Shown: in pieces, positions 14,220 through 57,592 of the stretch
Layout of the letters: each line of letters begins with the position of its first letter
How positions within the stretch are numbered: position 1 is the stretch's first letter
Assembly (NCBI GenBank): GCA_016930715.1
Contig: JAFGGC010000025.1
Span: 11,008 to 75,007, forward strand
From: Endomicrobiales bacterium
GTDB lineage: Bacteria > Elusimicrobiota > Endomicrobiia > Endomicrobiales > JAFGGC01
Direction of reading: 5' to 3'
DNA length: 64,000 nucleotides
Notes under the pieces: model-generated
Told to the model about the DNA's origin: nothing
Databases searched by the model: none
Seen by the model: only the letters and a program-made list of their open reading frames with translations
Made by a program: the position numbers and the translations under genes

Positions 14220-14235
14220 GTTTTCCGCCGAAGCG

Positions 14236-16367: not shown

Positions 16368-16381
16368 TATTTTAAGGCCCC

Positions 16382-20598: not shown

Positions 20599-22044
20599 AT
20601 GAAATACACGGAATTTATCGCTAAAAACCGGAAGCTTCTGCCTTTCATCGTGCTGGCGGTATGCGCGGTGGTCATCTTCCACAGACTGGCGGACTCCCCT
20701 CTCGGGGGGGACGACTGCTACTATGCGGAAGTCTCCAAGGAAATGTCCATGTACGGTGATTACCTGACCCCGAGAAACGGTCACCTGATAGACTTCCACA
20801 CCAGCAAACCCCCGGTTCTTTTCTGGATGAACGCGCTTTCAGGCAACCTGCTCGGCTTTGACACCTTCGCGATGAGGCTGCCTTCGGCCATACTGGGTTT
20901 TCTGTGCGTCGCAGGGGTCTTCTTCTTCGCCTGGCGCTATTTCGGCCTGGCCACGGCGGTCCTGGCCGCTATCATACTTACTTTCACCCAGCAATATCTC
21001 TACCACGTCAGGAGCTCCGTCACCGACGGCCCGTTCGCGGTATTCTTCGCTTTTTCAATGATGGGCTTCTGGGTAGCCAGGGCCGAAAAAATGAACGCCT
21101 TCTACTATCTATCCGGATTATTCCTGGGCCTCGCGGTAATGACGCGCCAGATCCCCGGGCTGTTCATAATCCCTCCCATTCTGGTCTATCTGGCGCTGAA
21201 AAAGGATATTTCACCGCTCAAAAACACCCATCTTTGGGGCGGGCTCCTGCTTGCCGCGGCCGTCATCGCCCCCTGGCACCTGATCATGTACGAAAAATAC
21301 GGAGCTTCCTTTGTCGACCAGTACACGAGGGTAGCGCTGAAAACGGCCGTTCACGGCTATCCGCTGAGCGAATACGCCAATCCTTCGCTCAATCCGTGGT
21401 ACGCTTACTTCGAGATAATTCTCTCTAATTACGAACCGTGGCTGATACTTCTGCTGGCAGGCGTGTTTTTCTTTTTTAAACGGCTTAAAAACATGCCTTT
21501 TGAAAAAAGGGACATACTCATCTTCCTGATGTCCTACGCGTTCGTCACGATTCTGCTTTTTCAGCTTGCCAGGGTGAAACAATACCACTACATAGTCCCC
21601 GTTTACGTGCCTTTTGCCGTTATTTCGGCCTGGGCGGTGGAAAACTTCGGGGAAAGGCTGAAAACCGCGGTCACCCTGACCGTTTGCTTTTCCGCCTGCC
21701 TGCTCGCCGCCGTATACATCGCATATCCCGTAATACCAAAAACCCTCGACAGCAGGGAATTTTCCGACACGATAAAGCTTGTTCCCGAGCTTAAAAAACT
21801 CAGTTTCGAAGCGCAGGTTCTCGCAAAAGGATTCAGCCATTACAATAACTGCTTCTGGTTTTACGCCGACAGGAAGGCCGTTAGGAACACCGAAGAAGAG
21901 CTCGCGCGAAAAATTGGCTCAGGAAAAAAATACTATTTCGTGCTTTTTAAGGATGCCTTTGAAAGGATTATCAGGAAGACCGGACCTGAAAAGATAAGTA
22001 TCATCAAGACCACTGACGATTCAGTGTTGTTCAAGAACTACTGA
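20599..22044 (+). CDS. ArnT/PMT-family (GT-C) membrane glycosyltransferase
   Basis: DDCYYAEVSKEM, KPPVLFW, RLPSA, multiple TM helices. TATAAT box near 20567. Confidence 0.85.
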   Translation: MKYTEFIAKNRKLLPFIVLAVCAVVIFHRLADSPLGGDDCYYAEVSKEMSMYGDYLTPRNGHLIDFHTSKPPVLFWMNALSGNLLGFDTFAMRLPSAILGFLCVAGVFFFAWRYFGLATAVLAAIILTFTQQYLYHVRSSVTDGPFAVFFAFSMMGFWVARAEKMNAFYYLSGLFLGLAVMTRQIPGLFIIPPILVYLALKKDISPLKNTHLWGGLLLAAAVIAPWHLIMYEKYGASFVDQYTRVALKTAVHGYPLSEYANPSLNPWYAYFEIILSNYEPWLILLLAGVFFFFKRLKNMPFEKRDILIFLMSYAFVTILLFQLARVKQYHYIVPVYVPFAVISAWAVENFGERLKTAVTLTVCFSACLLAAVYIAYPVIPKTLDSREFSDTIKLVPELKKLSFEAQVLAKGFSHYNNCFWFYADRKAVRNTEEELARKIGSGKKYYFVLFKDAFERIIRKTGPEKISIIKTTDDSVLFKNY

Positions 22045-26674: not shown

Positions 26675-26685
26675 TAAACGTATTT

Positions 26686-43316: not shown

Positions 43317-44006
43317 TCAAAATTTCCTGTTCCACGCGGGGTCATGGTACTTTTCCCGCCTAAGCTGCCCGGCACTTTCCGATTCCCTTTTGGTGGGATT
43401 CTGCTTCGTCAAATCCGCCCCGAGGACGTTCCGGAAACCGTTCATTATGCGCTGTACCATTTCTTCTACATTGAATTTTTTATCGAAGTGTATCGAACCC
43501 TGCTGCAGTAGCGTCCTGCCGCGCCTCCTCTGGCAGGAGCCGAGCACTTTTTTTCCGGAAGCAACAAGATCATGCGGAAAGAAGCTCTCGACGCACAGGG
43601 CCCCCTTCCGGCTCTTCAGATCCCTGCCAGGACCCGCGAAATCCACTTGCTCGCCCATTTCCTCGAACGCTTTTTTCACCGCCGTGTGTATTATCTCGTA
43701 AGTCTTGAGCTGGTCATAAACGAAAGGACAATCCTTGCTGTTGGCGATAAAGGAGTATGACAGATCCCTGTCGTGCACGACCGACAATCCGCCCGTCATC
43801 CTTCTGGTGACGGGCAGCTTCATGCGGGCGAACTCCTCGTACTTTTGAAAATACCCAATCGTGACGCACTTCGCATTCCACGTGTAGAGCCTCAACGTCG
43901 CCGGCGTGCTGTCATTTTCGCTCTTCGCAATGAAAAGCGCTTCATCCATTGCCATGTTTTCCGGGCCGTCGCCCCGCTCCGAAAGGATAAACCTTAAAGT
44001 CTTCAT
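43317..44006 (-). CDS. Lipoate-protein ligase A/LipM-type catalytic domain
   Basis: NMAMDEAL, LRLYTW, RRMTGG..V.H, GKKVLGSCQRR, LQQGSI. Confidence 0.85.
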   Translation of the reverse strand: MKTLRFILSERGDGPENMAMDEALFIAKSENDSTPATLRLYTWNAKCVTIGYFQKYEEFARMKLPVTRRMTGGLSVVHDRDLSYSFIANSKDCPFVYDQLKTYEIIHTAVKKAFEEMGEQVDFAGPGRDLKSRKGALCVESFFPHDLVASGKKVLGSCQRRRGRTLLQQGSIHFDKKFNVEEMVQRIMNGFRNVLGADLTKQNPTKRESESAGQLRREKYHDPAWNRKF

Positions 44007-44305
44007 TGCTTTTCCTTTTTAAGCAGTTGTTTCTTCCTTTTTATTCCGCCTTTCGCGGAATACCCTCCGAGGGAACCGTCGGAACTGACAACCCTGTGGC
44101 ACGGAACAAATGGCGCGAAAGGGTTTTTTTTCAGCGCCTGTCCTACCGCCCTCGCCGCACCGGGTTTTCCGACGCGCCTGGCTATCTGGCCGTAAGTCGC
44201 GGTACTCCCCTTGGGGATTTTAAGGCATTCAAGCCACACCTGACGGCAGAATTTTGGGTATTTGAAAAATTTTTTTCTGATAGGATAAGGAAGGTTAACG
44301 GTCAT
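44003..44305 (-). CDS. O6-alkylguanine DNA alkyltransferase (MGMT family, C-terminal domain only)
   Basis: TYGQIA, AARAVG, NP...VPCHRV, LGGYS. Confidence 0.88.
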   Translation of the reverse strand: MTVNLPYPIRKKFFKYPKFCRQVWLECLKIPKGSTATYGQIARRVGKPGAARAVGQALKKNPFAPFVPCHRVVSSDGSLGGYSAKGGIKRKKQLLKKEKQ

Positions 44306-45044
44306 TGTAAATGTTCAGGCGGCCCTCTTCGTCCACGAAGGTATAAATCTCTTTGTTCCCCTTGTACTGCCTGTAATACCTGTTTATTTTTCTGATGTAT
44401 TCCCTCGTCTCCCTGTAGGGCGGAACGGAATTGTAACGCCTTACTGCCCCCGGCCCGGCGTTATAGGCGGCAAGCGCAAGCTCCGTGTCTCCGTTGAAAA
44501 GATCCAGCATGTCGCTGAGGTATCTCGTACCACCCCGAATATTCTGTTCGGGATCGAACATCTCTTCAACTTCAAGGACCCTGGCCGTCCGTGGCATCAA
44601 CTGCATGAGCCCGCACGCTCCCTTGCACGAAACGTCACAATTATTGAAGTTTGATTCAGCTTTTATCACGGCTTTGACTAGCGCGGGGTCAATACTGTTC
44701 CTTTTGGCTTCCCTGTTTATTATGTGGTCGTACGGGCTGGCTTTCCTGACGGCAGAACCGCCCCTTCCGGGCGTTACCTTGTAAGAAGACAAGAACCTTT
44801 CACTCACCCGGTCCGTGGTCGAATGTATCCTGACCTTTTTTATCTCTTCCCTCTCGAACTTTATCGAACCGTTTTTCATCGTCACCCAGCAGCTGCCGTC
44901 CGGATTTTTCACGATGTCGCCTTCCAGCACGCTGCCGTTGGACAGCACGACCTTTCCGGTCATACCGAAGGCTGGCGCGGCAAACACCGCCACAAAGACC
45001 AGGACCTTGAAACCGCGCGTGAAATCAAACATTGAACGTCGCAT
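44295..45044 (-). CDS. Secreted lytic transglycosylase (SLT domain)
   Basis: Signal-like N-terminus, AVIKAESNF, GACGLMQLMP, ALAAYNAGPG, PPYRETREY. Confidence 0.92.
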   Translation of the reverse strand: MRRSMFDFTRGFKVLVFVAVFAAPAFGMTGKVVLSNGSVLEGDIVKNPDGSCWVTMKNGSIKFEREEIKKVRIHSTTDRVSERFLSSYKVTPGRGGSAVRKASPYDHIINREAKRNSIDPALVKAVIKAESNFNNCDVSCKGACGLMQLMPRTARVLEVEEMFDPEQNIRGGTRYLSDMLDLFNGDTELALAAYNAGPGAVRRYNSVPPYRETREYIRKINRYYRQYKGNKEIYTFVDEEGRLNIYNDR

Positions 45045-46299
45045 TGTTCGCCTGCTCCTGCGCCTTTACCGGTTCAACCGGTTCCTGTTTCGCCATCATA
45101 CCCATCGACGCCCTCTTCTGGAAAACCTTCAGGAAAGCGTCAACGACCCTGGGATGAAACTGTTTGCCCCTGTTACGCCTTATTTCCTCGACTGCCTCCG
45201 CCAGGGTAAGCGCCTTGCGGTAAGGCCTGTCCGTGGTCATCGCGTCAAACGCGTCCGCCACCGCTATTATGGAAGCCGCGAGAGGTATCTTTTCGCCCGA
45301 AAGCTTGAACGGGTATCCCCGGCCGTCATATCTCTCGTGGTGGTACTTGACCCCCAACAAGACGTCCTTGAACTCGTTTATGGGGTTCAGTATCTCGACA
45401 CCCATCATCGGATGCTGTTTTATCGACTCCTTTTCCTTCATACTCAGCGGTTTTTTCTTGTTGAGGACTTTTTCCGGTATTCCGATCTTGCCGATGTCGT
45501 GCATCAGCGCCGCAGTGCGGAGGTTGTCTTCGAAAACCCGCATGTCGCCGACATCGGCCGTGTCGAGGTTCCTTGCTATCTCGATGGAATACCTCACGAC
45601 CCGTTCCGTGTGGCCCTTGGTGTACTTGTCCTTGGCCTCTATCGCCGTCGCGAGCGCTATAACCGTGTTCAGGAACAACCTCTTGTTTATCTCGAGCTGC
45701 TTGTTCAGGTCTTCGAAGAGCCACGCGTTCTGCATGGCCATGACCACGTCCGAAGCAAGCACCGAAAGGAAACCAAGCTCGTCTTTCCTGAAGGCAGTCT
45801 TGTTTATCTTCTCCCCAATGAACAGCACGCCTATCAGGTTGTGCCTGTAGAAACCCGGGACGAAAGCTTTCGCCTGGTAGTACGAAAACTCGTTTTTAAG
45901 GTCTTCCAGATATTTGCGCATTTCGCCGGCTTTTCTGCCGCCGTATTTTTTCTGCAGGTAATGCACGTTGTTATACAGAAGGAAGTCCTGCTTGATGCTT
46001 TTCAGGTTCTTGTCCGTGAAATACTTTATGAGCGGGTTATCAAGCTTTACTTTTGTGAATCCCACGGGGACCTTTATCCCCTTTTTGCCGCGGGAGATCT
46101 TGACTATGTATTCGCCGCTGTTCTTGTCAAGGAGCAGTATCCCGGCGTGCCTCACAGGAATGTTGCGCATTATGGTACGCACTATCAGACGGGCAAGGGT
46201 GTCAACCCGGCGGACAAGTATCATCTGACGCGCGGCTTTCTCCAGATCGCTTTTAAAATTCCTTCCCACCGGCAAAAGCTCCTTTTGGTTCTGCTTCAA
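45025..46299 (-). CDS. GAF + HD-GYP cyclic-dinucleotide phosphodiesterase
   Basis: KDKYTKGHTERV, LMHDIGK, HHERYDGRGYP, ADAFDAMTTDRPYRK. Confidence 0.92.
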   Translation of the reverse strand: MKQNQKELLPVGRNFKSDLEKAARQMILVRRVDTLARLIVRTIMRNIPVRHAGILLLDKNSGEYIVKISRGKKGIKVPVGFTKVKLDNPLIKYFTDKNLKSIKQDFLLYNNVHYLQKKYGGRKAGEMRKYLEDLKNEFSYYQAKAFVPGFYRHNLIGVLFIGEKINKTAFRKDELGFLSVLASDVVMAMQNAWLFEDLNKQLEINKRLFLNTVIALATAIEAKDKYTKGHTERVVRYSIEIARNLDTADVGDMRVFEDNLRTAALMHDIGKIGIPEKVLNKKKPLSMKEKESIKQHPMMGVEILNPINEFKDVLLGVKYHHERYDGRGYPFKLSGEKIPLAASIIAVADAFDAMTTDRPYRKALTLAEAVEEIRRNRGKQFHPRVVDAFLKVFQKRASMGMMAKQEPVEPVKAQEQANNATFNV

Positions 46300-46667
46300 C
46301 CCTTTAGTACGTACTTCTCTATTTTTTCCTTCAGATCCCTGAGATCGAGGGGCTTCGAGATATAGTCGATAGCGCCGAGCGCCTTTGCCCGTTCCCTGGG
46401 TTCCTTCTCCGGGCTTCCCGCGATTATGATTACCTTCGCCTCCGGATCCTCTTGTTTGATGCGCTTTAAAACCTTGAACCCGTCGATGCCCTCCATGTGT
46501 ATGTCAAGGAAGACACAGTCGATCTTATCCTTGTCATAAAGGGCCAGCGCTTCCTCGCCGGAAGTAGCTATCGTGCTTGCTATCTTCATCCTCTTTAGGA
46601 AGTTCTGCATGAAGCTTACTATTTCTTCTTCGTCGTCAACTACCAGGATGTGCGTTCCTTTAGCCAT
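46296..46667 (-). CDS. Stand-alone response-regulator receiver
   Basis: LVVDDE, FLDIHMEGIDG (phospho-Asp), YISKP. Overlaps HD-GYP start by 4 nt. Confidence 0.92.
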   Translation of the reverse strand: MAKGTHILVVDDEEEIVSFMQNFLKRMKIASTIATSGEEALALYDKDKIDCVFLDIHMEGIDGFKVLKRIKQEDPEAKVIIIAGSPEKEPRERAKALGAIDYISKPLDLRDLKEKIEKYVLKG

Positions 46668-46668
46668 T

Positions 46669-48843
46669 TTATATTACCCCGTCTATAGTTTTCCCTCCGA
46701 CTATCTTTTTGGGAAGCTGAATCGTGAAAGCCGTCCCTTCCCCGAAGCTTGACTCGAACCATATCTTCCCCCGATGGTTCTCCTCTATCATTCTCTTGAC
46801 CACGTACATCCCTATCCCTGTTCCGGATTTCGTGGATGACTTTGTCGTGAAGAATGGCGCGAATATCTTGTGTTTGTTCTCCGGTTTTATCCCCATACCG
46901 TTGTCTTCTATCCTTATTTGAGATGTCAATGAATCCTGAGACACCGTGAGCTTGACCGCCGGGCTGAATTTCTTCAGATCGTCATCGTTCATTCCGTCGA
47001 TTTTCTCCTGTATCGCCTCGTAAGCGTTGTCCAGTATGTTATACACCGTTTCCATTACCTGCGCCTTGACGCCGTAGATTATATCGTTTGAAAGTTTTTC
47101 AATTGCAAGCGGATATTTCGTTAGCCCGTGTTTTATCTTCAAAAGTTCCAGGGAAAGGTCTATAACCTCGTCCAGGAAGAAGTTCGAGCACAGCGTTTCC
47201 TTTGCTTCCACGCGGGCATAGTTCAGTATCCCTTTCACGATTCCGTCGGTCCGCTTCACGTTGTTTATTATCGAATCCGATATTTTCGCCAAATACTCGA
47301 AGGTCTTCTTGAAATCCTGGTTGTTTTCTATCACGTCCTGATGATTCGACGTGAAATTCTCGATCTCAAACCGAAGTTCCCCCGAAACCATCGAGAAATG
47401 GTTCAGCCGGTTGTTTATCTGGTGCGCCACACCTTCCGCCAACCCGCCGATCGAGGCTAGCTTTTCCGCCGCGAAGATCTTTTCCTGCGCCTTGGCGAAC
47501 TCCTCCACGAACAGGCAGTTCTCTATCGCCATCGACGTCTGGCGCGAGAGTATATTAAAAACATTAATATCGTCAATCGAATATGCTTTTTGATTAATTT
47601 TTTCACCAAGCAACATAAAACCCAATGACGAATCTTCGTAAAAGGACGGCACCACCAGCGACACGTGCATCGGAAAATTGATGGTCTTTACCACGTCGTG
47701 AGGTATTTCTTCGTAAAGGAATGGTTCTCGGTGCTTTTTCACGAACTCTACAAACGGGTTTTTTAAAGGAAATATGAAATCGTCGACTATCTTTTTATTC
47801 GACCTTATGGCCCTTAACCTGTAAAATCCATTCTCCCTGTCTTCTAGAAACAATGCAGCATACTCTATTTTAACTGATTTTGTCACTATCCTCACGATAA
47901 GATTTAGAAGCTTGCCTAGATTATGTTCCTTCGTCATACCGCTGGCCGCCTGAATGAGTATCTTCTGATACCTCCTCTGCTCTGCAAGAATAAGGTCTTC
48001 AGCTTTTCTTTGAAGCAATCTGTATCCGAGTGGGCCAAGTGTCGCAAATATCACGGCGTAAGTTGTTGAAAGCAGCCATGAATTTGTGTAATATCCAACA
48101 AAAAATGGCACTCCAAGGACAAGCGCGTAAAGAGTCAGAAATATTCCGAGACGTGTCACTATAACTTGTATTGATAATAAACGGTATTTAATTATGGCGT
48201 ATGAAATGAATATAACATATGCGGAAACCAGTCCATTTAAAATCGGAGGTATGGGGATATTATACCAGAGAAAATAATTTGTGGACCCCCCGACATATCC
48301 TAATAACGTTCCGAACATAATACTTGATATCTGGTTATGTAGAACACCGACGGTTATCGTCCAATGCTTTGCAATAACTATGAAAGCATATATTACATAC
48401 GACAAATAGTATATTACTCCGACATGAAATCCCACGCCTCCTATAGGCCAAAACGCAAACAACATCTTCTGCTCTACACCTGTCACGAAATATTCTGTAT
48501 ATACCGTTGTCGATATGACGATACTCAATAAATAACCTATGTAAATAACATTCTTCTTTTCCTTAAGTACGCCCAAAAATGCACTGATAAAATGCAAAAA
48601 TGTTACTGGCATAAATAATACACCTATCATACATGTTCTTACCAAATAGTCAGCAAGTTTTAAGTTATTTACAGTCATCATCCACAAACAATAGAAAAAT
48701 GACCACCATGCAATTGAAAGACAAAAAAGTGTGAACGTTATGTTCTTAGTATTCTTTCTGTCCCTTGTAAGCACAAACATACCAAGCAAGAAAGAAGTGA
48801 GGAAGTTTATTGCGGCTGAATAAATGTAATATTTTATTCCCAT
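46669..48843 (-). CDS. Membrane sensor histidine kinase: multi-TM (HisKA_7TM-like) input + GAF + HisKA + HATPase
   Basis: About 270 aa of successive TM helices, GAF, H-box GVAHQINN, N-box NILDNA, DNGMGI, PFFTTK, GTGIG. Confidence 0.92.
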   Translation of the reverse strand: MGIKYYIYSAAINFLTSFLLGMFVLTRDRKNTKNITFTLFCLSIAWWSFFYCLWMMTVNNLKLADYLVRTCMIGVLFMPVTFLHFISAFLGVLKEKKNVIYIGYLLSIVISTTVYTEYFVTGVEQKMLFAFWPIGGVGFHVGVIYYLSYVIYAFIVIAKHWTITVGVLHNQISSIMFGTLLGYVGGSTNYFLWYNIPIPPILNGLVSAYVIFISYAIIKYRLLSIQVIVTRLGIFLTLYALVLGVPFFVGYYTNSWLLSTTYAVIFATLGPLGYRLLQRKAEDLILAEQRRYQKILIQAASGMTKEHNLGKLLNLIVRIVTKSVKIEYAALFLEDRENGFYRLRAIRSNKKIVDDFIFPLKNPFVEFVKKHREPFLYEEIPHDVVKTINFPMHVSLVVPSFYEDSSLGFMLLGEKINQKAYSIDDINVFNILSRQTSMAIENCLFVEEFAKAQEKIFAAEKLASIGGLAEGVAHQINNRLNHFSMVSGELRFEIENFTSNHQDVIENNQDFKKTFEYLAKISDSIINNVKRTDGIVKGILNYARVEAKETLCSNFFLDEVIDLSLELLKIKHGLTKYPLAIEKLSNDIIYGVKAQVMETVYNILDNAYEAIQEKIDGMNDDDLKKFSPAVKLTVSQDSLTSQIRIEDNGMGIKPENKHKIFAPFFTTKSSTKSGTGIGMYVVKRMIEENHRGKIWFESSFGEGTAFTIQLPKKIVGGKTIDGVI

Positions 48844-48846
48844 AAT

Positions 48847-49953
48847 TTACAGAAGCTTGTGCGCTTTGACCTTTTTAGTTAGTATCAAATAGAATATGTC
48901 TTCCGTCTTGATCCATTGAAGCTCAAGCTTATACTTTCTGTCGACATCAATATTGTTGTCCCTTAGCAGGCAAAGAATATCATGCAGGTTTCTATGCACG
49001 AACACCCAGTTACAGAACCAGTCCGGCGATACAAAATTCCATATATCAAAATCCTTATAGCTTACTACAAATTTACCTCCTGGATTTAGGATACCCATGC
49101 AAAAGATTATGAACTCAATCAATATATTGCTCGGCAAATAGTCTGCTACCCCTATGTTATAAATGAGATCTTTTTTTCCAAAAACACTGGCAAAATGCTC
49201 CTTTTTATTGGATATATTCCGTATGCTCTCCTTCTTGAATCCAAATCTGACTTTTCTATTCCTATATTTTCCTAAATATCGTCTTGCATAATCCAAGGCA
49301 AGGTCGTCCTGATCTACGTTTGTGCAATTCAGCATACCTGAATATTCTTTGTGGAATCCTTTTTCAAAATATGTTCTGAGTATCCTGGCTCCACCGCAAC
49401 CTATATCAAGCATTTCAATCCGCGGCTTTTTAGTTTTATTTACGAAATCCCTCATTATTTCGACCATCTTATCGCGCCTGTGTCGCACAGACACTACGCT
49501 ATCGACTGACAAAAGATAATTGTCAAGATATTGACCTATTCCTTTCGACAATATTCTATTATCATACATCATTTCAAGCATTTTAAAATCCCCTGGATAC
49601 CCTCTTGGTTTTTCTGAAGCCCACTTCATTATACAACTATGCTTCGTCACTTCCTTAATTACTTCCCTGAATTTCCTTTTAATTTCCTTTATTAGTAACC
49701 TTGTCTTCAAACCTTTCCTTTCTATTTTTTTCTCAAGTTCCCTTCCTTTAAAAACGACATGATCACATCTCTCATTAATCTGTCTTTGAAGATATTTGGG
49801 CCTCATTTTATACTTTTTATATACCTGCTTAATACCTTCAATAAATCCTACTACATCTTTTAAAAAAAATCCTGCAACAAGCTCCCTCTGCTTGCTGTTT
49901 TCAGTAAGTTCCATAATTGAATTGATCGCAACTTCCATTATTGACCTTTCCAT
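48847..49953 (-). CDS. Class I SAM-dependent methyltransferase, PhcB-like
   Basis: KPRGYPGDF.M motif, SAM motif MLDIGCG, VDQD..AL, DLIYNIGVADYL, LNPGG. Confidence 0.75.
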   Translation of the reverse strand: MERSIMEVAINSIMELTENSKQRELVAGFFLKDVVGFIEGIKQVYKKYKMRPKYLQRQINERCDHVVFKGRELEKKIERKGLKTRLLIKEIKRKFREVIKEVTKHSCIMKWASEKPRGYPGDFKMLEMMYDNRILSKGIGQYLDNYLLSVDSVVSVRHRRDKMVEIMRDFVNKTKKPRIEMLDIGCGGARILRTYFEKGFHKEYSGMLNCTNVDQDDLALDYARRYLGKYRNRKVRFGFKKESIRNISNKKEHFASVFGKKDLIYNIGVADYLPSNILIEFIIFCMGILNPGGKFVVSYKDFDIWNFVSPDWFCNWVFVHRNLHDILCLLRDNNIDVDRKYKLELQWIKTEDIFYLILTKKVKAHKLL

Positions 49954-49963
49954 TTACCCTCCA

Positions 49964-51166
49964 TTATATGGCCTGCAGTACCACGCAGCAGTTATTGCCG
50001 CCAAAGGCGAAGCCATTGTTTATTGCGGCATCTACTTCCTGTTTCCTTGCGGAATTCGGCACGCAATCTATCCCGCATTCGGGATCGGGCGTTTCGAAAT
50101 TAACGGTGGGAGGTATCACCCCGTCGCGCATGGCAAGACAGCATGATATTGCCTCGATTGCCGAAGCCGCACCCATCGTGTGGCCTATCATAGATTTTAT
50201 GGAGCTGACAGGAACTTTTTTCCCGTGTTCCCCGAACACGTCAATTATCGCCTGTGATTCGTTTTTATCGTTCGCCACCGTGCCGGTTCCGTGAGCGCTG
50301 ATATAGTCGATATCCGCACCCGAAAGCCCTGAATCCTCAAGAGCTTTTTTCATTGCTTTTGCCACGCCTTCTCTTTTCGGTATCGTCATATTGTAGGCGT
50401 CCGACGACATTCCATAGCCGGATATCTCGCAGTACATTTTGGCATTTCTTCTTTCTGCGTGTTCGGCGCTTTCCAAAATCAATATCCCGGCCCCTTCGCC
50501 GAGCAGCATTCCCTTCCTGTTTTTGTCAAATGGCGCGCACTTTTCAGGCGCCATCGCGTACAGCCGCTGAAATCCCTGAAAACCTATCCTCGACAGTGAT
50601 TCCGTGCCGCCTACTATAGCTGTTTCAATTTCCCCTTTCTTTATCAGGTCATATCCATAACCCAAAGCGAAATTTCCCGCGCCGCAGGCGTTAGGCACCA
50701 GAAGGCTCATACCCTTGACTCCGAAATAATAGCCGACGTTCCTGACGATTGAAATGGGCAGGACATTGAGTATGGATTTTGTTTCCAACCCCTTATACCT
50801 TTTTTCGATAGCGTTGCGGGATGAATAATCAATTTCGCTGTCTTCTGGCAACGTGGTGCCTATTATTACGGCCGTCCTGTGCTTGCGATTGTCTCCGAAC
50901 TCCGCGTCATCAAGCGCCATTTTCGTGGCCGCGATGGCGAACTGCGACGCCCTACCGAAATGCTTTGAGAGTTTTTTCGGCATGAACCGCGAAGGGTCAA
51001 AATCCCTTATTTCTCCGGCAAAGTGCCTGTTGTATTTCGACGTATCGAACATGGACACTTTGTTTATTCCTGATTTTCCGGCAATCAGGTTCTGCCAGAA
51101 AACGTCCGTGCCGATTCCGATAGAAGAAACGACCCCCAATCCTGTCACGACGACTCTATTATCCAT
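49964..51166 (-). CDS. beta-ketoacyl-ACP synthase (FabF/KS-alpha type), intact Cys-His-His
   Basis: PNACGAG, SAHGTGT, SIKSMIGH, NGFAFGG. Confidence 0.92.
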   Translation of the reverse strand: MDNRVVVTGLGVVSSIGIGTDVFWQNLIAGKSGINKVSMFDTSKYNRHFAGEIRDFDPSRFMPKKLSKHFGRASQFAIAATKMALDDAEFGDNRKHRTAVIIGTTLPEDSEIDYSSRNAIEKRYKGLETKSILNVLPISIVRNVGYYFGVKGMSLLVPNACGAGNFALGYGYDLIKKGEIETAIVGGTESLSRIGFQGFQRLYAMAPEKCAPFDKNRKGMLLGEGAGILILESAEHAERRNAKMYCEISGYGMSSDAYNMTIPKREGVAKAMKKALEDSGLSGADIDYISAHGTGTVANDKNESQAIIDVFGEHGKKVPVSSIKSMIGHTMGAASAIEAISCCLAMRDGVIPPTVNFETPDPECGIDCVPNSARKQEVDAAINNGFAFGGNNCCVVLQAI

Positions 51167-51199
51167 ATTTGATCTTTCTTTATACCAAAATACCCGTAA

Positions 51200-52489
51200 C
51201 TAAAAATTGTATGTGGCGCCCAGCCTGAAAATGTTCAACGGATACTCATAGCTCCTGCCGTCTTTTGAAGGGCTGTTTGAGGGACAGAAAGCGTAACAAA
51301 AATCAATATTCACCTTTCCTGCCTTATACCCTGCTCCTATGGAATAGTACACGAAATCATACTGGTTTATCTCAGTAAGAGCCAGCATATCGGTCGAAAA
51401 CGGCACAGGGTCCGTCTGTATGCCGGCTCTCAACGCAAGCTTTTCGCTCTGCCTGTATTCGGCTCCCAAACGCACCTGCGTCGTATCTTTCCAGTCCCTG
51501 TTGTCGAGTTTGCGGTCAACATCCGGAAACGCGGCGTCCTTGTATTTGATCGTCTCATGCATGACTGAATAGTTGTTCTGGTCAACGCACAGCCCGACAG
51601 TGACGTCATCCTGCGGCAGGTACGAAAATCCCAGACCGTACGTCATCGGATATTTGTAGTCCTCGTCATAGTCGGCTTCGGTCGGCGCCAGCTTGCTCGT
51701 GCCGGTCAGCTTTATCGTCGTGCCGCTTCTGAACACAAAGCCGCTGTTGACCTTTTCGCTAAGCTTATACATCACGCCCGTTACCAGCTGCATCCCGTAG
51801 CCAGAGGCGCTTTTTTCGTACAAAACGCTGTAGTCTGCGGGCATTGCCGACCCCGTTCCTCTCGTATAATCCTTCTTGATCGTCAGCGTGTCCGTCATAT
51901 TGACAACGTCAATCCCGACGCCCAGCGAAAGCTCCGAATTCATTTCCTTCGCGACGCTGAAGTTATACACTATGAAAGCGTAAGCGGCTTCAAGGCTCGC
52001 GTCGATCGTGTCTGTGCCTGTGAGCGCATCACTCACCGAATCCTCCCACTTGCCTCCCCCGCCGCCTATGCCGTACATGTTCAACGAATACGTGATGCCG
52101 CCGCTGTGCTTGTATCCGCCCACGAAGGGTATGAGAGCGGACGTTTTGAATTTCTTGCTCTGAAACTCAGCCGGCTCGCTCGGCATCTGCGCGGCGATGG
52201 GAAAATCCCCGTCCTGCGACACGGGCGCGGAAACGTTCATCATGGACCGGTTGCTCTTGGCGTCATCCGCCAGATAAAAAACGGAAGCCTCCACGGCGGC
52301 TTCCTTCTGAAGCGCGAGGCCTGCGGGGTTATAGTACGCCGCTGTCGGCCCGTCCGCGACCGCTATTACCGCGGACCCCATGCCTCCGTCCCTGGCGCCG
52401 GGAAGTATGAATATCCCTTTCGCCCACAAAGACTGCCCAAAAACCGATAAAACAAACAGAAGCGTGCATGTCAATCTTAGCTGTTTCAT
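51200..52489 (-). CDS. FadL/TodX-family outer-membrane hydrophobic-compound channel
   Basis: Signal peptide, GARDGGMGSA..AVADGPTAAYYNPAGL plug, W.DT...RLGAEY, C-terminal ...GATYNF. Confidence 0.8.
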   Translation of the reverse strand: MKQLRLTCTLLFVLSVFGQSLWAKGIFILPGARDGGMGSAVIAVADGPTAAYYNPAGLALQKEAAVEASVFYLADDAKSNRSMMNVSAPVSQDGDFPIAAQMPSEPAEFQSKKFKTSALIPFVGGYKHSGGITYSLNMYGIGGGGGKWEDSVSDALTGTDTIDASLEAAYAFIVYNFSVAKEMNSELSLGVGIDVVNMTDTLTIKKDYTRGTGSAMPADYSVLYEKSASGYGMQLVTGVMYKLSEKVNSGFVFRSGTTIKLTGTSKLAPTEADYDEDYKYPMTYGLGFSYLPQDDVTVGLCVDQNNYSVMHETIKYKDAAFPDVDRKLDNRDWKDTTQVRLGAEYRQSEKLALRAGIQTDPVPFSTDMLALTEINQYDFVYYSIGAGYKAGKVNIDFCYAFCPSNSPSKDGRSYEYPLNIFRLGATYNF

Positions 52490-52496
52490 TTTTTTA

Positions 52497-52520
52497 ATGT
52501 TATATCTTCCGATATAACAT
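52497..52520. promoter_or_regulatory. Perfect 10-bp hairpin between SD and start codon of the FadL-like gene
   Basis: ATGTTATATC-ttcc-GATATAACAT. The mRNA loop is GGAA. Confidence 0.6.
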
Positions 52521-52534
52521 ATCCTCCTTTGTTA

Positions 52535-53002
52535 TTATTGCCCCAATTTCACTCCGAAACCCAGAACCGCCTCGGCGATGATATCTTCCCCCACCTTCGC
52601 CCTGACCTTTACGATTCCGCCGGTGTCTATCACCTTGTCGGCGCTCGCTTCTATGACAAGCGTGTCCCCCGGCACCGCCGGCCTCTTGAAAACTGCCTCG
52701 ACCTTCCCCAAAAAAAACTGCGGGTTTTTCTTCATGTTGTCCGATTTCACGTGCGCGTAAAGGAGTATGCCGGCCTGCGCCATCGCCTCTATGATGATGA
52801 CGCCCGGCATTATGGGGTTTTCCGGAAAGTGCCCCTGAAAATAGTCCTCGTTGGCTGTGATGTGCTTAAGGCAGGTTATCGAGGAACCCGTTTTGTCGAA
52901 TTCCACGACCCTATCGATGAACACGAAAGGATACTTCTGAGGAAGGACCTTCTTTACATCGCAGGAAAAAAATTGGCCGTTTTTCTGGTCTTGATGCGAC
53001 AT
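52535..53002 (-). CDS. 3-hydroxyacyl-ACP dehydratase (second FabZ-type copy)
   Basis: LPQKYPFVFIDRV, HFPENPIMPGVIIIEAMAQ. Confidence 0.92.
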   Translation of the reverse strand: MSHQDQKNGQFFSCDVKKVLPQKYPFVFIDRVVEFDKTGSSITCLKHITANEDYFQGHFPENPIMPGVIIIEAMAQAGILLYAHVKSDNMKKNPQFFLGKVEAVFKRPAVPGDTLVIEASADKVIDTGGIVKVRAKVGEDIIAEAVLGFGVKLGQ

Positions 53003-53059
53003 GAAATCCTTTTGAAAACAAGAAAGTTAAAACCGCCCTTTAATTCTAAAGGGTTTCCT

Positions 53060-53317
53060 TTATTTTTTCAATAGTTTTTCAATTAATTCATAAACGTCAT
53101 TTGGCGAGCGAATGGTGGGTATTTGTTCTTCCGGAATCGCGACTTTGAACTTCTTTTCCACCGCGGCGACTATCTCAAGCGCCTTCATGCTGTCAACCCC
53201 CATATCCTCGGCAAATTTTGCGTCATCCTTCAATTCCTTTTCCGGAATCTCGGATATGTCGGAGATGAGTTTCCTTATCCCCTTGCGCATCGCACCCGCA
53301 TCCTTAACTTTCGGCAT
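53060..53317 (-). CDS. Acyl carrier protein
   Basis: DMGVDSMKALEI phosphopantetheine Ser motif. GGAGG SD before ATG at 53317. Confidence 0.9.
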   Translation of the reverse strand: MPKVKDAGAMRKGIRKLISDISEIPEKELKDDAKFAEDMGVDSMKALEIVAAVEKKFKVAIPEEQIPTIRSPNDVYELIEKLLKK

Positions 53318-53399
53318 CTTGAAAACCTCCTTTTGGATTTTTAGCCCCCCCTCCGGGGACCGTTTTTGTTTCTTTAACCTTTGAACTCTTGAACCTGCC

Positions 53400-54134
53400 C
53401 TATATCGCCAATCCACCGTCAATCTTTATTACCTCGCCCGTAATGTATCCCGCTTTTCCCGACGCGAGAAAAACGCAGAGATCCGCCACTTCTTCCGGCT
53501 CTCCGAGTCGCTTCTGCGGCACCGACTCCAGTATCTTTTTTTTGACGTCTTCGCCCAGCGAATCCACCATATCCGTCTTTATGTACCCCGGGCATACCGT
53601 GTTCACCCGCACGTTGTAGCCGGCAACCTCCTTGGCGAGCGCTTTCGAAAAACCGATTATCCCGGCTTTCGAAGCGCTGTAATTCGTCTGTCTCGGCAGG
53701 CCCGTTATCCCGCTGACGGAACTCATGTTGATAACGCATCCGCCCTTCTGCTTCATAAAGGTCGTTATGGCCGCCCTCGTCATGTTGAACGTGCCGTTGA
53801 GGTTGGTGTCTATCACGGTCTTCCAGTCGTCGTGCGTCATCATCACGAGCGCCTTGTCGATATTCACGCCGGCGTTGTTGACGACGACATCGAGTTTCTT
53901 GAATTTTTTCAGGGCCTCGTTCACTACCGCCCTGCACTGCTCGTATTCCCGAACGTCGGTTTTCACGCTGACGACGTTCTTCGCGGATTTTTGAAGAGCA
54001 TCTGCCTCGTCCTTGCTCCTGTTATAGGTGAAAACCACGTTGGCCCCGGCTTTCGAGAAAGCCAGAACGCAGGCTCTCCCGATGCCCCTTGAACCGCCGG
54101 TTATTATGGCTGTCTTTCCCTTTAAAACGTTCAT
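53400..54134 (-). CDS. 3-oxoacyl-ACP reductase (FabG type)
   Basis: TGGSRGIG, NNAG, YSASK, PGYIKT, IDGGL. Confidence 0.93.
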   Translation of the reverse strand: MNVLKGKTAIITGGSRGIGRACVLAFSKAGANVVFTYNRSKDEADALQKSAKNVVSVKTDVREYEQCRAVVNEALKKFKKLDVVVNNAGVNIDKALVMMTHDDWKTVIDTNLNGTFNMTRAAITTFMKQKGGCVINMSSVSGITGLPRQTNYSASKAGIIGFSKALAKEVAGYNVRVNTVCPGYIKTDMVDSLGEDVKKKILESVPQKRLGEPEEVADLCVFLASGKAGYITGEVIKIDGGLAI

Positions 54135-55363
54135 ACTTTCTCCAGTATGCAGGCGCTGTTGTATCCGCCGGGCCCGAATGAAGTCACGAGAACGGTCTTT
54201 ATCCTCTTTTTTCTGGCCCTGTTCGGCACGCAGTCAATGTCGCAATCCGGGTCCTTCTGCTTGTAGTTTATCGTAGGAGGTATGAACCCTTTGTGCATCG
54301 CTCCGGCGGACGATATTATCTGCAGGATACCAGACGCAGAGAAGGTCTCCCCGAGCATCGATTTTATGGAGCTTGCCGGTATTGTCTTCAGGCTCTCGCC
54401 GAAGATTTTCTTGAGAACCAAGACCTCTATCCCGTCCATCTCCCGGGAGGAGTTCGCGCAGGTCGATATGTAATCTATGTCTTCGGGAAGCACGTCGGCC
54501 TGCTCCAGCGCGGACCTCACCGCTTTTTCAAGGCCTAACCCTTGAGGGTGGATCCTCGCGATGCCTCTGGCGTCAAAGTAATTCGCGACTGCCCTGACCC
54601 TGGCGTATACTTTCGCCTTTCTGGCAAGCGCGGTTTTTTCGTCCTCCATCACCACCACTCCCGCGCCTTCACCCAGGACCGGGCCATTGCGCCTCTTGTC
54701 GTACGGGCACATAACTTCTTTGCCTTTTAGCCCTGCCAGGTACCCAAGCTTATTGAACCCGAAAAGCACCGGATAAGACAGGGTGTCCACGGCCCCGCAG
54801 AGGACGGTTTTTGCCCTGCCTGTTTCTATTGTGTTTTCAGCGTATTTTATTGCGTCAAGCGATGAAGTGTAGCCGGTGGAAACTGTGGTGTTGAAACCCT
54901 GCATGTTGAACTTTATCGAAACCTGGCTTGAGGCTGCGTTTATGACGGTTGAAGGGAACAGCGCGGGATTGGAAAAATTTAGGCCTTCCTTCAACACCTG
55001 CCTGTCGAACTGGACTATCGGTACGAGGTGCGAAAACGACGTCCCGGTGACCATGCCGATGTCGTCGGTGTTCTCTCCGGTTATCGATAGCTTCGCGTCG
55101 TCGATAGCCATTTTTGAGGCGGCGATCAGAAATAGGGCGCTCCTGTCGAGGTTCCGCAGGCCCTTTTCGTCGCCGAAAAAAAACATAAGTTTCGAGTCGT
55201 CGACTTCGCCAGCTGTTTTCGCCTTGATTTTTCCGACAGAAAAGTTCCGGATAGGTTTAACGCAATTCCTGCCTGCCCTAAGATTCCCCCAAAACTCTTC
55301 TTTCCCCACAGCCCCTGAAGTAACTACGCCGAGGCCCGAAATGACAAGTTTGACAGTTTTCAT
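54131..55363 (-). CDS. Ketosynthase-like protein lacking the catalytic triad (chain-length-factor-like)
   Basis: KS fold (LGEGAG, SSIKSMLG, SFGPGG) but STGYTSS (no Cys), STCANSS (no His), LGET (no His). Confidence 0.85.
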   Translation of the reverse strand: MKTVKLVISGLGVVTSGAVGKEEFWGNLRAGRNCVKPIRNFSVGKIKAKTAGEVDDSKLMFFFGDEKGLRNLDRSALFLIAASKMAIDDAKLSITGENTDDIGMVTGTSFSHLVPIVQFDRQVLKEGLNFSNPALFPSTVINAASSQVSIKFNMQGFNTTVSTGYTSSLDAIKYAENTIETGRAKTVLCGAVDTLSYPVLFGFNKLGYLAGLKGKEVMCPYDKRRNGPVLGEGAGVVVMEDEKTALARKAKVYARVRAVANYFDARGIARIHPQGLGLEKAVRSALEQADVLPEDIDYISTCANSSREMDGIEVLVLKKIFGESLKTIPASSIKSMLGETFSASGILQIISSAGAMHKGFIPPTINYKQKDPDCDIDCVPNRARKKRIKTVLVTSFGPGGYNSACILEKV

Positions 55364-55406
55364 GGTTAAGGCATCGAGAGCAAGATTGACCCGCTGCTTA
55401 CTTGGT

Positions 55407-55436
55407 ATTCTATCTAAAATAAAAGGGATTTGTCAA
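55407..55436 (-). promoter_or_regulatory. sigma70-type promoter heading the PKS/FAS-signalling cluster
   Basis: TTGACA(55436-55431)-N18-TAGAAT(55412-55407). Confidence 0.6.
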
Positions 55437-55483
55437 GGATGGAGACCTAAGGAAAAAGTTGCACAAAAATTTTACTGGAGCAT

Positions 55484-57592
55484 TTAACCGGAGTTTCTTG
55501 ACCCGTTCCCGTTCCTGCGGAAATACACGAAAGCATATACCAAGAAACCGGCGAACGCGGCCCCTGATACGGCCAGACCAGCCTTGACAGGCCAAGGGTC
55601 GTAGTACATCCGGATCTTATGGCGTCCCGGTTTAACGGCGAGCGCCCTCAGCGCGTAATCCGCAAGCAGAATCTCGCTGTTTTTTCCGTCAATTTCGGCC
55701 TTCCATCCGGGGTAGTAATTTTCGCTGAAAACAAGCCATCCGGCGTCTTGCGAATCGACCGAAACCCGTATTTCGTTAAAGGAGTAATTCCCGATGCTGA
55801 CTATCCACCTGTTATCCTTTTTTACTGAACTTGCGTCGGGTTTGAAATCCCCCGGCTTCCTTTCTGCACTGAATATGACCTCGTTCCACGGGTCAAAACG
55901 GTTTGACGACATATAATCGAGAATCCCGCTCTCCGGCAAATACAACGCCTTCGGCGCGAAGAACACCCTGGGCAGGTGCCGGTTGTTCTTGTACACGTTC
56001 ACGTGTCCTTTTTTAATCAGCCGGTACGACGGGTCGCTTATTTCGCGCATTGTCAACAGGTACTTGACGTTCAAAAGGTCCAGCACCGGAGTGTACGGAG
56101 TATCTATCGTCCTCAGCAGCGAATCGTACCTCGCCGGCGTGAACGATTCCCTGCCGTCTATGTCAAAAAGCATGTAGGCACCGCCGGTGTTCCTGTGGAG
56201 CATATCCTTGTGATTGAGCCATCTTTTTAGATAGTCTTCGTCGAACTCCGGCCTGCCCGACGCCGCCTCCGGCGTAACGACGTACCTGAACAGGTCGCCG
56301 TCGCCGGCCAATAGTTCGATGTTGCCGGTCTTCGTTTCGTAGTAGGAATCGTCTATCAGCTGGTGCGCTTTGGCCCCGAACAGGAACAGTTCGGCCACGA
56401 TCAGCGCAACTACAACCGTTTTAAGGCGCGTGCTTCTCATATTTCCGACGGAGTATCCCGCGAGCAGCGCGAAGGCGAACGCGCTCATCGAATTTACCTG
56501 GGCCGGGAACCTGAAATATTTCCAGCCCGGCACCGCGTGATAGAACAGCTTGTACACCGGCAGGTAACTGCCCAGGGACAGCGCCAGCGAAACGATGAAA
56601 ACCCACAAGAAAAACGATATCTCGCCTTTCATCAGTTTTTTGACGGAGACAAATACCAACACTAAGGCAACGACCGAAAAATAGAACCCGGTTATGTGCG
56701 GGTCGTCGGGCCAGAAGGGTTTGAACCAGTCCCACAGAGGCAGGAAGATGAACTTGGCGAAGATTTCCGGGCTTATCGAATAAACCGCCGCGTGTTCAAA
56801 CCCCATCCCGCCACCCCTGACCGAATTTTTCACCACTTCCAGCGCGGGCAGCACCTGCGCCATTGAAAAAACGGCGGTCGACGCGGCAAACAAGGCAAGA
56901 TATCCCGCTTTTTTCACGATACCAGGCCCGGTGCGAGCAAAGACGGCGTAGAAAAACATCACCACCGCGCAGTAATAGGTGAACTGCGGGAATCCCGCGA
57001 AGACCTGCACCGCGGCGAAAAGCGCCGCCAGGAGCGCGTAGAACACCTTCTGGTCGGCAAGCGCCTTGCGGAAGAACAGAAAAACAAGCGGCGTCCAGGC
57101 GTACGAGCTCGCGTTGCTCAATATCCCCGCGTGCAGGACGAAGAACCCGTTGAACATGTAGACCGCCGCGGAAAGAACCGCTGCCGCCGTGCCGAATTTC
57201 ATCGAACGCGAAAGAAAATACATGAAAAGCCCAGCCATGAACGCGTGCAGAACGATGCTTATCTTGATTGCGGCGGCAAAACCCGTCAGGGCATATACAA
57301 TGTTGAAGGGATAATAGCATCCGGCCTGGGGATTGGCGAGAAACGGCATACCGCACAGTACGAATGGGTTCCAGAGGGGTATGGTTTTTGCGGCAAGTGC
57401 GCTCTTGTACAGCGCGAAACTCGGAAAGAAAAGTTTTTCCGTCAGGTCGAAGAACAGGACCTGGCCGGTGAAAACTATTTTATGCCAGAAGGCGGCCGAC
57501 AGCAGGAAAAGAACCGCGGCCCACTTGATGTGGACGCGCGCGCCGTCCCCCCGCATTTCCAGAACCGTTTTCAGCAGACTTTTGAGCATCAT
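55484..57592 (-). CDS. YfhO-family membrane protein (GT-C-like)
   Basis: PLWNP...GMPF.ANPQ...YYP, many TMs, FRFP, C-terminal SENYYPGWKA.IDG...G.H.I...Y.P. Confidence 0.85.
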   Translation of the reverse strand: MMLKSLLKTVLEMRGDGARVHIKWAAVLFLLSAAFWHKIVFTGQVLFFDLTEKLFFPSFALYKSALAAKTIPLWNPFVLCGMPFLANPQAGCYYPFNIVYALTGFAAAIKISIVLHAFMAGLFMYFLSRSMKFGTAAAVLSAAVYMFNGFFVLHAGILSNASSYAWTPLVFLFFRKALADQKVFYALLAALFAAVQVFAGFPQFTYYCAVVMFFYAVFARTGPGIVKKAGYLALFAASTAVFSMAQVLPALEVVKNSVRGGGMGFEHAAVYSISPEIFAKFIFLPLWDWFKPFWPDDPHITGFYFSVVALVLVFVSVKKLMKGEISFFLWVFIVSLALSLGSYLPVYKLFYHAVPGWKYFRFPAQVNSMSAFAFALLAGYSVGNMRSTRLKTVVVALIVAELFLFGAKAHQLIDDSYYETKTGNIELLAGDGDLFRYVVTPEAASGRPEFDEDYLKRWLNHKDMLHRNTGGAYMLFDIDGRESFTPARYDSLLRTIDTPYTPVLDLLNVKYLLTMREISDPSYRLIKKGHVNVYKNNRHLPRVFFAPKALYLPESGILDYMSSNRFDPWNEVIFSAERKPGDFKPDASSVKKDNRWIVSIGNYSFNEIRVSVDSQDAGWLVFSENYYPGWKAEIDGKNSEILLADYALRALAVKPGRHKIRMYYDPWPVKAGLAVSGAAFAGFLVYAFVYFRRNGNGSRNSG

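Follow-up and report, generated by a model that had tools for sequence, protein, structure and literature searches.

A putative lipid-signal locus in an Endomicrobiales genome, apparently an undescribed relative of Phc signalling in Ralstonia

In the Phc system of Ralstonia and Cupriavidus, encoded by phcBSRQ, PhcB makes methyl 3-hydroxymyristate or methyl 3-hydroxypalmitate and PhcS senses this product. In the diffusible signal factor (DSF) system of Xanthomonas, RpfF, RpfC and RpfG are a crotonase synthase, a hybrid kinase and a REC-HD-GYP protein, HD-GYP phosphodiesterases being defined by HD and HHExxDGxGYP motifs, while CqsA/CqsS and LqsA/LqsS are alpha-hydroxyketone autoinducer systems. 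Passages of PMC10653808 describe LqsA/LqsS/LqsR and state that the phc cluster is restricted to Betaproteobacteria. Here we describe a ten-gene locus on the minus strand (45025-55363) of a 64,000 nt stretch of the genome of an Endomicrobiales bacterium (assembly GCA_016930715.1, contig JAFGGC010000025.1; hereafter the window). It has the appearance of a relative, not yet described, of the Ralstonia Phc system, and its arrangement is found in several phyla. Reading of the open reading frames (ORFs) together with Pfam and NCBIfam placed all ten genes where the initial annotation had them, and Pfam matches and translations bore out the proposed order: chain length factor (CLF)-like ketosynthase (KS), ketoreductase (KR), acyl carrier protein (ACP), dehydratase (DH), FadL-type barrel, KS, methyltransferase (MT), histidine kinase, receiver (REC) and GAF-HD-GYP protein, with intergenic gaps of -4 to about 82 nt. 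Throughout, G000 denotes the genome of the window, G0xx its relatives, and L0xx or L1xx individual loci.

The Phc system shares with this locus a gene for a PhcB-family MT directly upstream of a gene for a multi-pass membrane kinase, followed by receiver genes; the synthase gene is also directly upstream of the kinase gene in a Paraburkholderia phcBS-like operon. The window MT (48847-49953, minus strand, 368 aa), 3 nt from the kinase gene, was assigned by profile match as a class-I S-adenosylmethionine-dependent MT of the PhcB family, in a short form without a PilZ domain. Its class-I methyltransferase matches in Pfam were all sub-threshold (best 21.2 bits, cut-off 30) and no NCBIfam family matched, but a motif KPRGYPGDF precedes the Rossmann fold, and KPRGYPGD(F/Y) at this position is common to all members of the MT family. 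A weak tblastn match on a Paraburkholderia plasmid led to an operon encoding an MT (468 aa), a membrane kinase and two successive receivers, and homologues of this MT, which include Cupriavidus proteins with 67-69% identity, are named 'extracellular factor (EF) 3-hydroxypalmitic acid methyl ester biosynthesis protein' by their sources. Alignment of the MT (A1) with the PhcB-type protein using hhalign gave 99.7% (E 1.7e-25), and the MT family (A3, 40 sequences) aligned with the PhcB family (A2, 14 sequences, named through source annotations rather than by assay) at 99.8% (E 5.6e-28) with 19% identity over 234 columns, both families containing the motif KP(R/L)GY(P/A)GD(F/Y) in a homologous catalytic region. 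These profiles make the two families remote homologues, in the catalytic region only, and uphold the PhcB-like MT of the initial annotation.

Several features set the locus apart from Phc. The alignments begin at approximately position 188-196 of the PhcB-type protein (A2 profile column 231), and the window MT lacks the N-terminal region of PhcB, its own N-terminus of about 90 aa being helical and unrelated to that of PhcB. The window sensor consists of HisKA_7TM plus GAF, with no PhcS-type domain, and its output is formed by a REC-only protein of 123 aa and a GAF-HD-GYP protein instead of PhcR/PhcQ acting on PhcA; PhcR/PhcQ-type output was absent at the locus, and PhcA was not searched for in the genome. 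The window locus furthermore adds its own KS/CLF-KR-ACP-DH set and a FadL barrel, and loci of this type were found outside the Proteobacteria.

The AF2 model of the MT (pLDDT 92.2) matched mostly small-molecule and natural-product O- and C-methyltransferases in Foldseek searches, with TM scores of 0.35-0.47 that do not allow a substrate to be assigned; cyclopropane fatty acid synthase and the protein N-terminal methyltransferase NTMT1 were also among the matches. The best E value in a PDB sequence search using the MT profile was 0.002, and the ESM Atlas returned generic methyltransferase cluster names only. A word-based protein search found four MT relatives, one of which was fused to PilZ. 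With an exhaustive profile search the number of cluster representatives rose to 5954 at E <= 0.001 (1460 of them at E <= 1e-30), so the small number from the word-based search reflects its sensitivity limit. Among ten long forms of the MT sampled, eight carry an N-terminal PilZ domain, one a REC domain and one neither. Fusions of the MT to PilZ or REC are frequent in this family, and the PilZ parts of the long forms (P0006-P0076) contain RxxxR and SxxG-type motifs. The idea that PhcB is a degenerate PilZ-MT is unsupported, as the PilZ domain of the long forms fails to align to the N-terminus of PhcB.

A motif scan using one genome per species yielded 276 MT relatives, and the 80 loci retained come from Omnitrophota, Planctomycetota, Thermodesulfobacteriota, Patescibacteria, Nitrospirota, Elusimicrobiota and other groups. 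Adjacency was scored where at least 600 nt of downstream sequence were available (76 loci), as a 7TM-matching kinase on the same strand starting no more than 400 nt downstream of the MT. An MT followed by a 7TM kinase was found in 36/76 loci (37/76 if a short overlap is allowed), and in 22/30 of the closest loci. A receiver is present in 45 of the 80 loci, the full GAF-HD-GYP protein in 8/80 and the HD-GYP catalytic domain in 30/80, including 19 of the 30 most distant loci. A KS was found in 9/80 and a CLF-like KS (at least 38% identity) in 3/80. Among MT-kinase loci whose upstream flank reaches at least 6 kb, the KS set was present in 2 of 18. These counts identify the MT and 7TM kinase as the conserved core; REC and HD-GYP are frequent companions of this core, and the KS set is an occasional accessory. 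The initial interpretation of a self-contained system, in part supported, needs correcting on this point. The order MT-kinase-REC-GAF-HD-GYP recurs in L031, L038, L051, L058, L061 and L083, and three loci from phyla other than that of the window combine it or the MT-kinase pair with biosynthetic genes: KR-CLF-ACP-DH-KS-MT-nitroreductase-kinase in L067, KR-CLF-KS-ACP-FAD oxidase-MT-kinase-REC-REC-x-GAF-HD-GYP in L083, and DH-KS-FAD oxidase-MT-kinase-REC-HD-GYP in L061. In L083 (Planctomycetia), a gene annotated as '23S rRNA-intervening sequence protein' (13966-14325) lies between the receiver and HD-GYP genes.

When the biosynthetic set was followed instead, CLF orthologues were detected in 3 of 60 same-order relatives (G003, 56%; G010, 42%; G001, 41%), with the matches in the remaining relatives being at the level of FabF (<= 36%), and in 4 of 401 sampled genomes of the phylum including that of the window (3 of the 400 others). 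A metagenome scan with the CLF protein was uninformative, giving 24 loci that were all FabF-level matches of at most 36% identity. In G003 the order is UvrC-CLF-KR-FadL-ACP-DH-KS, with a FadL barrel 52% identical to that of the window. The MT position is occupied there (L013, 13641-17012) by a ParB/HTH-like gene, an FAD amine-oxidase-type enzyme (475 aa) and a NAD_binding_4 thioester reductase (368 aa), followed by the orthologous kinase (52%), REC (62%), HD-GYP (65%), SLT and Ogt; the oxidase and reductase suggest an aldehyde or alcohol product in that genome. G000 and G003 have the whole neighbourhood from UvrC to SLT-Ogt in common. G010 has the order KR-CLF-DH-KS-ACP, a third (split) KS, an FAD oxidase and the kinase (47%), in a different neighbourhood with TrmD, L19 and RNase HII after the kinase, so that the KS set adjoins the orthologous kinase in both relatives with enough contig. 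The contig of G001 stops beside the ACP gene, and G001 was therefore left out of the linkage judgement, and G016 has MT-kinase-REC without the KS set. With biosynthetic and signalling halves linked in G003, G010, L061, L067 and L083, the possibility raised at the outset that they stand together nowhere else falls away.

The MT gene and the part of the kinase gene for sensor residues 1-200 form a low-GC cassette (48244-49953, minus strand), with the MT at 35.9% GC and the sensor part at 35.2%, whereas the genome averages 51.4% (standard deviation 3.9); both values are within the lowest 0.4% of 4120 segments of 1.1 kb. Identity between the G000 and G003 kinases is 28% for residues 1-100 and 16% for residues 101-200, but 57% for 201-290, 62% for 291-370, 68% for 371-450, 74% for 451-550, 47% for 551-640 and 70% for 641-724. 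The window kinase is a phylogenetic mosaic: in a tree of residues 1-200 it groups with those of L031, L047, L059 and L022 (SH-aLRT 99), each of which is downstream of an MT gene, whereas the tree built from residues 291-724 makes it the sister of the G003 kinase (SH-aLRT 99). Approximately unbiased (AU) tests rejected each grouping on the data of the other part (p 0.00017 and 1e-35), and the grouping of the window with G003 alone on the sensor part (p 0.0135), p-values that are weakened by the groups having been defined once an initial FastTree tree was in hand. Across 19 pairs of MT and kinase, distances between MTs correlated with those between sensor regions (residues 1-200; Mantel r 0.41, p 0.002) and not with those between kinase residues 201-290 (r 0.03) or 291-724 (r -0.01, p 0.50). 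The MT and kinase residues 1-200 here are a recently imported low-GC cassette, and the picture suggested by trees and distances is one of enzyme and sensor head being exchanged as a unit, the window MT being paired with one sensor type and the G003 oxidase and reductase with another. Mosaicism arose in the kinase family more than once: the L083 kinase hardly differs from the L052 kinase in its cytoplasmic part (branch lengths 0.15 and 0.20), yet its sensor head groups with that of G003.

The biosynthetic half and the FadL barrel account for six genes, all on the minus strand. Both KS proteins have the N- and C-terminal KS domains of Pfam; the first (54131-55363, 410 aa) has Y165, C302 and E339 in place of the Cys-His-His triad, and the second (49964-51166, 400 aa) keeps it (C161, H292 and H329), so that their earlier designation as CLF-like and active, respectively, is correct. 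The same combination of an active and a triad-less KS is seen in G003, G010, L067 and L083. Between them are a FabG-type KR (3-oxoacyl-ACP reductase; 53400-54134, 244 aa; Pfam adh_short/KR, adh_short_C2 E 4.4e-69), which scored slightly below the cut-off of the NCBIfam model 3oxo_ACP_reduc (294.9 bits, cut-off 297.75) and below that of the flexirubin FlxB model (244 bits, cut-off 340); a dedicated ACP (53060-53317, 85 aa; Pfam PP-binding) with its serine in a DSM motif read from the translation, the ORF of which is open to a TTG at 53422 (53060-53422) with the ATG at 53317 as likely true start; a FabZ-type 3-hydroxyacyl-ACP dehydratase (52535-53002, 155 aa; Pfam FabA/FabZ, NCBIfam FabZ PRK00006 136.4 bits, cut-off 113); and a FadL/TodX-family outer-membrane beta-barrel (51200-52489, 429 aa; Toluene_X 87.6 bits, cut-off 29.7) with an N-terminal signal-like sequence in the translation and weak matches, under cut-offs, to PorV/BamG models.

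The best solved relatives of the two KS proteins, the ACP and the DH come from the anammox Cluster I (amxFabF2/amxFabFmut, amxACP and amxFabZ), which likewise combines an active KS and a triad-less KS with a dedicated ACP and FabZ. In the PDB, the CLF was best matched by 9s5h_C (E 4.5e-94), the active KS by 9s5h_B (E 6.3e-129) followed by the ishigamide KS 6kxd_A, the ACP by 7auf_A, 9s5i_E and 7qv0_D, and the DH by 7qv0_A (E 3.1e-38) and 8ayb_A (E 3e-38). Codes 7QV0 and 8AYB appear in the amxFabZ paper (PMC10139942), and we infer that 9s5h/9s5i are the structures of the preprint 10.64898/2026.05.19.726425, whose main text lists no PDB codes, because they contain two KS chains and an ACP chain, with Val at the Cys position in 9s5h_C. 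That preprint describes the Cluster I FabF homologue pair as a KS/CLF-like heterodimer that decarboxylates malonyl-ACP and prefers C6-C8 substrates, and terms Cluster I unique to ladderane producers (10.64898/2026.05.19.726425), and passages of Rattray et al. report similar clusters in Desulfotalea, Geobacter and Pelobacter and link polyunsaturated hydrocarbons in Desulfotalea to such clusters (PMC2649909). Unlike Cluster I, the window locus adds a KR, a FadL barrel, an MT and signalling genes, and Pfam found neither a B12 radical SAM enzyme nor a phytoene-dehydrogenase homologue among its ten genes, so nothing points to ladderanes. An FAD oxidase of the broad class of phytoene dehydrogenase does occur in G003, G010, L061 and L083, where no radical SAM enzyme was found among the Pfam-scanned ORFs, which covered part of these loci. 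The type II polyketide synthase (PKS)/fatty acid synthesis (FAS) assignment proposed initially needs correcting on the PKS side: the KS pair is nearest to the anammox FAS-type KS/CLF heterodimer and not to an aromatic type II PKS.

Hallmarks of aromatic PKS and aryl polyene clusters are a KS-CLF pair with cyclases/aromatases, or an adenylating starter enzyme with LolA/MMPL export genes. Both assignments were rejected, with no cyclase/aromatase, adenylating starter enzyme or LolA/MMPL export domain found in the locus by Pfam. A cispentacin assignment was also discarded, with the AmcF, AmcB and AmcE models scoring far under their cut-offs and the accessory genes being absent.

On the signalling side, the kinase (46669-48843, minus strand, 724 aa) has a HisKA_7TM-GAF-histidine kinase architecture (HisKA_7TM 43.2 bits, cut-off 28.6; weak GAF; HATPase_c), and is followed on the same strand by a stand-alone receiver (46296-46667, 123 aa; Response_reg E 8.5e-29), in which D11, D55 and K105 are invariant in alignment A5, and a GAF-HD-GYP phosphodiesterase-type protein with a TTG start (45025-46299, 424 aa; Pfam HD_5/HD, HD_5 124.2 bits, cut-off 27.2, E 5.8e-36) with intact HDIGK and HHERYDGRGYP motifs in the translation. 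BLASTP aligned the window kinase with the PhcS-like protein over the kinase core only (26% over 266 aa), the latter giving a weak MASE8 match in Pfam where the window kinase matches HisKA_7TM. Within the HD-GYP protein, the first 200 aa form a GAF paralogous to that of the kinase (BLASTP 24% identity, E 8e-12). A complex model of the receiver on the GAF of the HD-GYP protein scored 0.74, against 0.00 for the best control, a mark attained by 58/80 solved complexes and 2/110 mismatched pairs, counts that apply only roughly since our own alignments were used for the docking model. The model runs had at least 91% of contacts in common, with a partner pLDDT of at least 84, and the modelled interface places the alpha1 and beta5-alpha5 face of the receiver against GAF residues 63-88 and 133-142. 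The model supports a docked complex of the receiver and the HD-GYP protein's GAF domain but does not show that it forms.

The locus resembles Rpf/DSF in having a putative fatty-acid-derived signal and a two-component relay to an HD-GYP phosphodiesterase, but its kinase is not of the hybrid RpfC type, its REC and GAF-containing HD-GYP are separate genes where RpfG is a fused REC-HD-GYP protein, and the RpfF-type crotonase/enoyl-CoA hydratase family was absent from the Pfam matches of the ten proteins. Of the Phc/Rpf-like hybrid described initially, the PhcB-like MT is upheld, but neither a PhcS-type sensor nor the RpfF/RpfC/RpfG architecture is present, and the HD-GYP idea is all that ties the locus to Rpf. 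CqsA/CqsS and LqsA/LqsS likewise have a synthase gene beside that of a multi-pass sensor kinase for a hydrophobic fatty-acid-derived signal, but there the synthase is a pyridoxal phosphate-dependent acyl-CoA transferase, and HD-GYP output and a dedicated FAS set are lacking.

A sigma-70-like promoter site (TTGACA-N18-TAGAAT; 55407-55436, minus strand) is located 44 nt upstream of the first gene, where the initial annotation had placed it, and with 11/12 matches ranks first of the 32 promoter-like sites in 43800-56000. Its function as promoter is putative, and a single promoter serving all ten genes is a candidate arrangement. At the other end, the SLT transglycosylase gene (44295-45044) overlaps the HD-GYP gene by 20 nt, and no intergenic minus-strand terminator was found, so that the 3' limit of the ten-gene unit is only putative. 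Almost all long ORFs of the window (1-64000) are on the minus strand, with one clear exception (20599-22044, plus strand), and co-orientation by itself therefore carries little weight. The window also contains a housekeeping dehydratase in the form of an LpxC-FabZ fusion (15027-16385, minus strand; Pfam LpxC plus FabA), as recognised initially. Two very long ORFs (1541 and 825 aa) are located at 22049-29163 on the minus strand, upstream of the lipid A/BamA region.

Paralogues of locus genes are present elsewhere in G000, on contigs C37 (kinase), C24 (ACP) and C4 (KS/KR), among unrelated neighbours. The orphan 7TM-GAF kinase on C37 (146728-148872, locus L100) has no MT or KS gene nearby and is flanked by genes for a phosphopentomutase-like protein, PNP, pyrimidine nucleoside phosphorylase, a PfkB kinase and cytidine deaminase. 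The ACP paralogue, 69% identical to the locus ACP, is on a low-GC island (33-36%; C24, approximately 9350-16500, locus L101) adjoining HNH and T5orf172 genes, which may be a mobile island carrying a carrier-protein copy. On C4 (5498-9559, locus L102), genes for a KS (375 aa), a GDSL lipase, a KR and a BioB-like radical SAM enzyme make up a second small cluster of lipid type, perhaps with a role in biotin precursor synthesis.

The reading that we favour, and to which we give about an even chance, is that the locus encodes a Phc-like hydrophobic methyl-ester signal system with cyclic di-GMP (c-di-GMP) output. The anammox-type KS/CLF heterodimer, together with KR, ACP and FabZ, would make a dedicated acyl-ACP, probably with a short- or medium-chain 3-hydroxy- or enoyl-acyl group, and the PhcB-family MT would convert this acyl chain to its methyl ester. 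The hydrophobic product could then cross the outer membrane via the FadL-family barrel. Inside the membrane, the HisKA_7TM kinase would detect it with its first transmembrane helices and phosphorylate the stand-alone receiver, and the receiver, by docking on the GAF of the HD-GYP enzyme, would alter c-di-GMP turnover. The product, which component senses what, diffusibility and the direction of the effect on c-di-GMP are what we infer in this scheme.

Several observations weigh against it. Across the aligned columns the MT has just 19% identity with PhcB-family proteins, and it is without their N-terminal region, approximately 190 aa that are conserved in that family, and BLASTP showed no likeness between the window sensor region and the PhcS-type sensor. 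The chain made is not predictable, since enoyl reductase, acyltransferase, thioesterase and phosphopantetheinyl transferase are all absent from the ten-gene set. Most MT-kinase pairs (16 of 18 whose upstream flank reaches at least 6 kb) lack a KS set, and FadL is rare at other loci, being present in G003 (52%) and otherwise seen as weak tblastn matches in L021 and L075 among the 80. The G000-G003 pair alone could represent inherited gene order, and a kinase paralogue with 44% identity is located among nucleoside-salvage genes (C37). Finally, the receiver docking could reflect a generic REC-GAF likeness, the AU p-values are weakened as stated, and as the MT and sensor region are contiguous DNA, recombination history alone could give their co-variation.

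The main competitor, though unlikely, is envelope-lipid homeostasis instead of cell-to-cell signalling: a specialised lipid of the membrane or outer membrane would come from the KS/CLF set and be tailored by the MT, the FadL-type barrel would place it in the outer membrane, and the 7TM kinase would gauge its amount from within the cell's own membrane and adjust c-di-GMP to match. The anammox Cluster I proteins as best solved relatives of KS, CLF, ACP and DH, the polyunsaturated hydrocarbons linked to similar Desulfotalea clusters in PMC2649909, and the oxidoreductase of about 480 aa in the relatives, which is FAD amine-oxidase-type and of the broad class of the Cluster I phytoene dehydrogenase, are all in line with a lipid product. 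The locus is moreover surrounded by envelope genes (YfhO, MurJ and SLT, with LpxC-FabZ elsewhere in the window), and a 7TM sensor with few loops fits sensing inside the membrane. Against this stand the rarity of the cluster in the phylum (4/401 genomes), the MT-kinase pair being mostly without the KS set (16/18) and the membership of the MT in the family of a known signal synthase; moreover, enzyme and sensor region are swapped together, a joint exchange that is the pattern of signal-receptor pairs and not of a housekeeping lipid.

We consider it improbable that the MT is a regulatory, CheR-like methyltransferase acting on the kinase or another protein, with the KS set as unrelated neighbour or regulated target. 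Homology to PhcB, a small-molecule methyl-ester synthase, argues against this, as do the nearest folds, mostly natural-product O- and C-methyltransferases and cyclopropane fatty acid synthase with NTMT1 also listed (TM 0.35-0.47), and the lipid-tailoring redox enzymes that hold the same position in G003 and G010. Such a role would fit the longer members with N-terminal PilZ (8/10) or REC (1/10), fusions which make the enzyme an output of signalling, as well as the direct adjacency to the kinase in 37/76 loci and the distant members near REC-HD-GYP genes, with an HD-GYP domain in 19/30 of the most distant loci. That the halves are functionally untied neighbours in one long minus-strand run is disfavoured as very improbable: nearly all long ORFs of the window share that strand, and synteny between G000 and G003 extends to the unrelated flanks UvrC, SLT and Ogt, but in G010 the KS set adjoins the kinase in a different neighbourhood, KS set, MT and kinase are found together in L067, L083 and L061 from other phyla, and MT-kinase adjacency in 37/76 loci spans many phyla.

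Going beyond this locus, we tentatively propose, as possible though with rather less assurance than the Phc-like reading of the window itself, a widespread and undescribed class of lipid-ester signalling across uncultured phyla (Omnitrophota, Planctomycetota, Patescibacteria, Nitrospirota and others). In such a class the MT and the first HisKA_7TM helices might act as exchangeable signal-receptor cassettes, similar to pherotypes, and, with the same reserve, the output might be c-di-GMP via REC and GAF-HD-GYP, with PilZ-fused synthases closing a feedback loop and a module of general use supplying the short-chain precursors. Our literature search found no description of PhcB-like genes outside the Betaproteobacteria, PilZ- or REC-methyltransferase fusions, a HisKA_7TM ligand or such Omnitrophota loci, and the passages of papers that mention the HisKA_7TM domain name no ligand for it.

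If Phc has a distant yet recognisable relative in Omnitrophota, Planctomycetota and other mostly uncultured groups, fatty-acid-ester signalling would gain a wider known range and a direct tie to c-di-GMP, and the PilZ- and REC-fused MT forms provide a testable link from second messengers to signal synthesis. The combined swaps of enzyme and sensor, with an MT here and an oxidase and reductase in G003, are natural chimeras for finding the ligands of HisKA_7TM sensors. The organisms with Cluster I-like sets found here are without ladderane-specific genes among the locus ORFs scanned, and the presence of Cluster I-like KS/CLF, ACP and FabZ in such non-anammox genomes, wired to a sensor, would bear on what that core makes.

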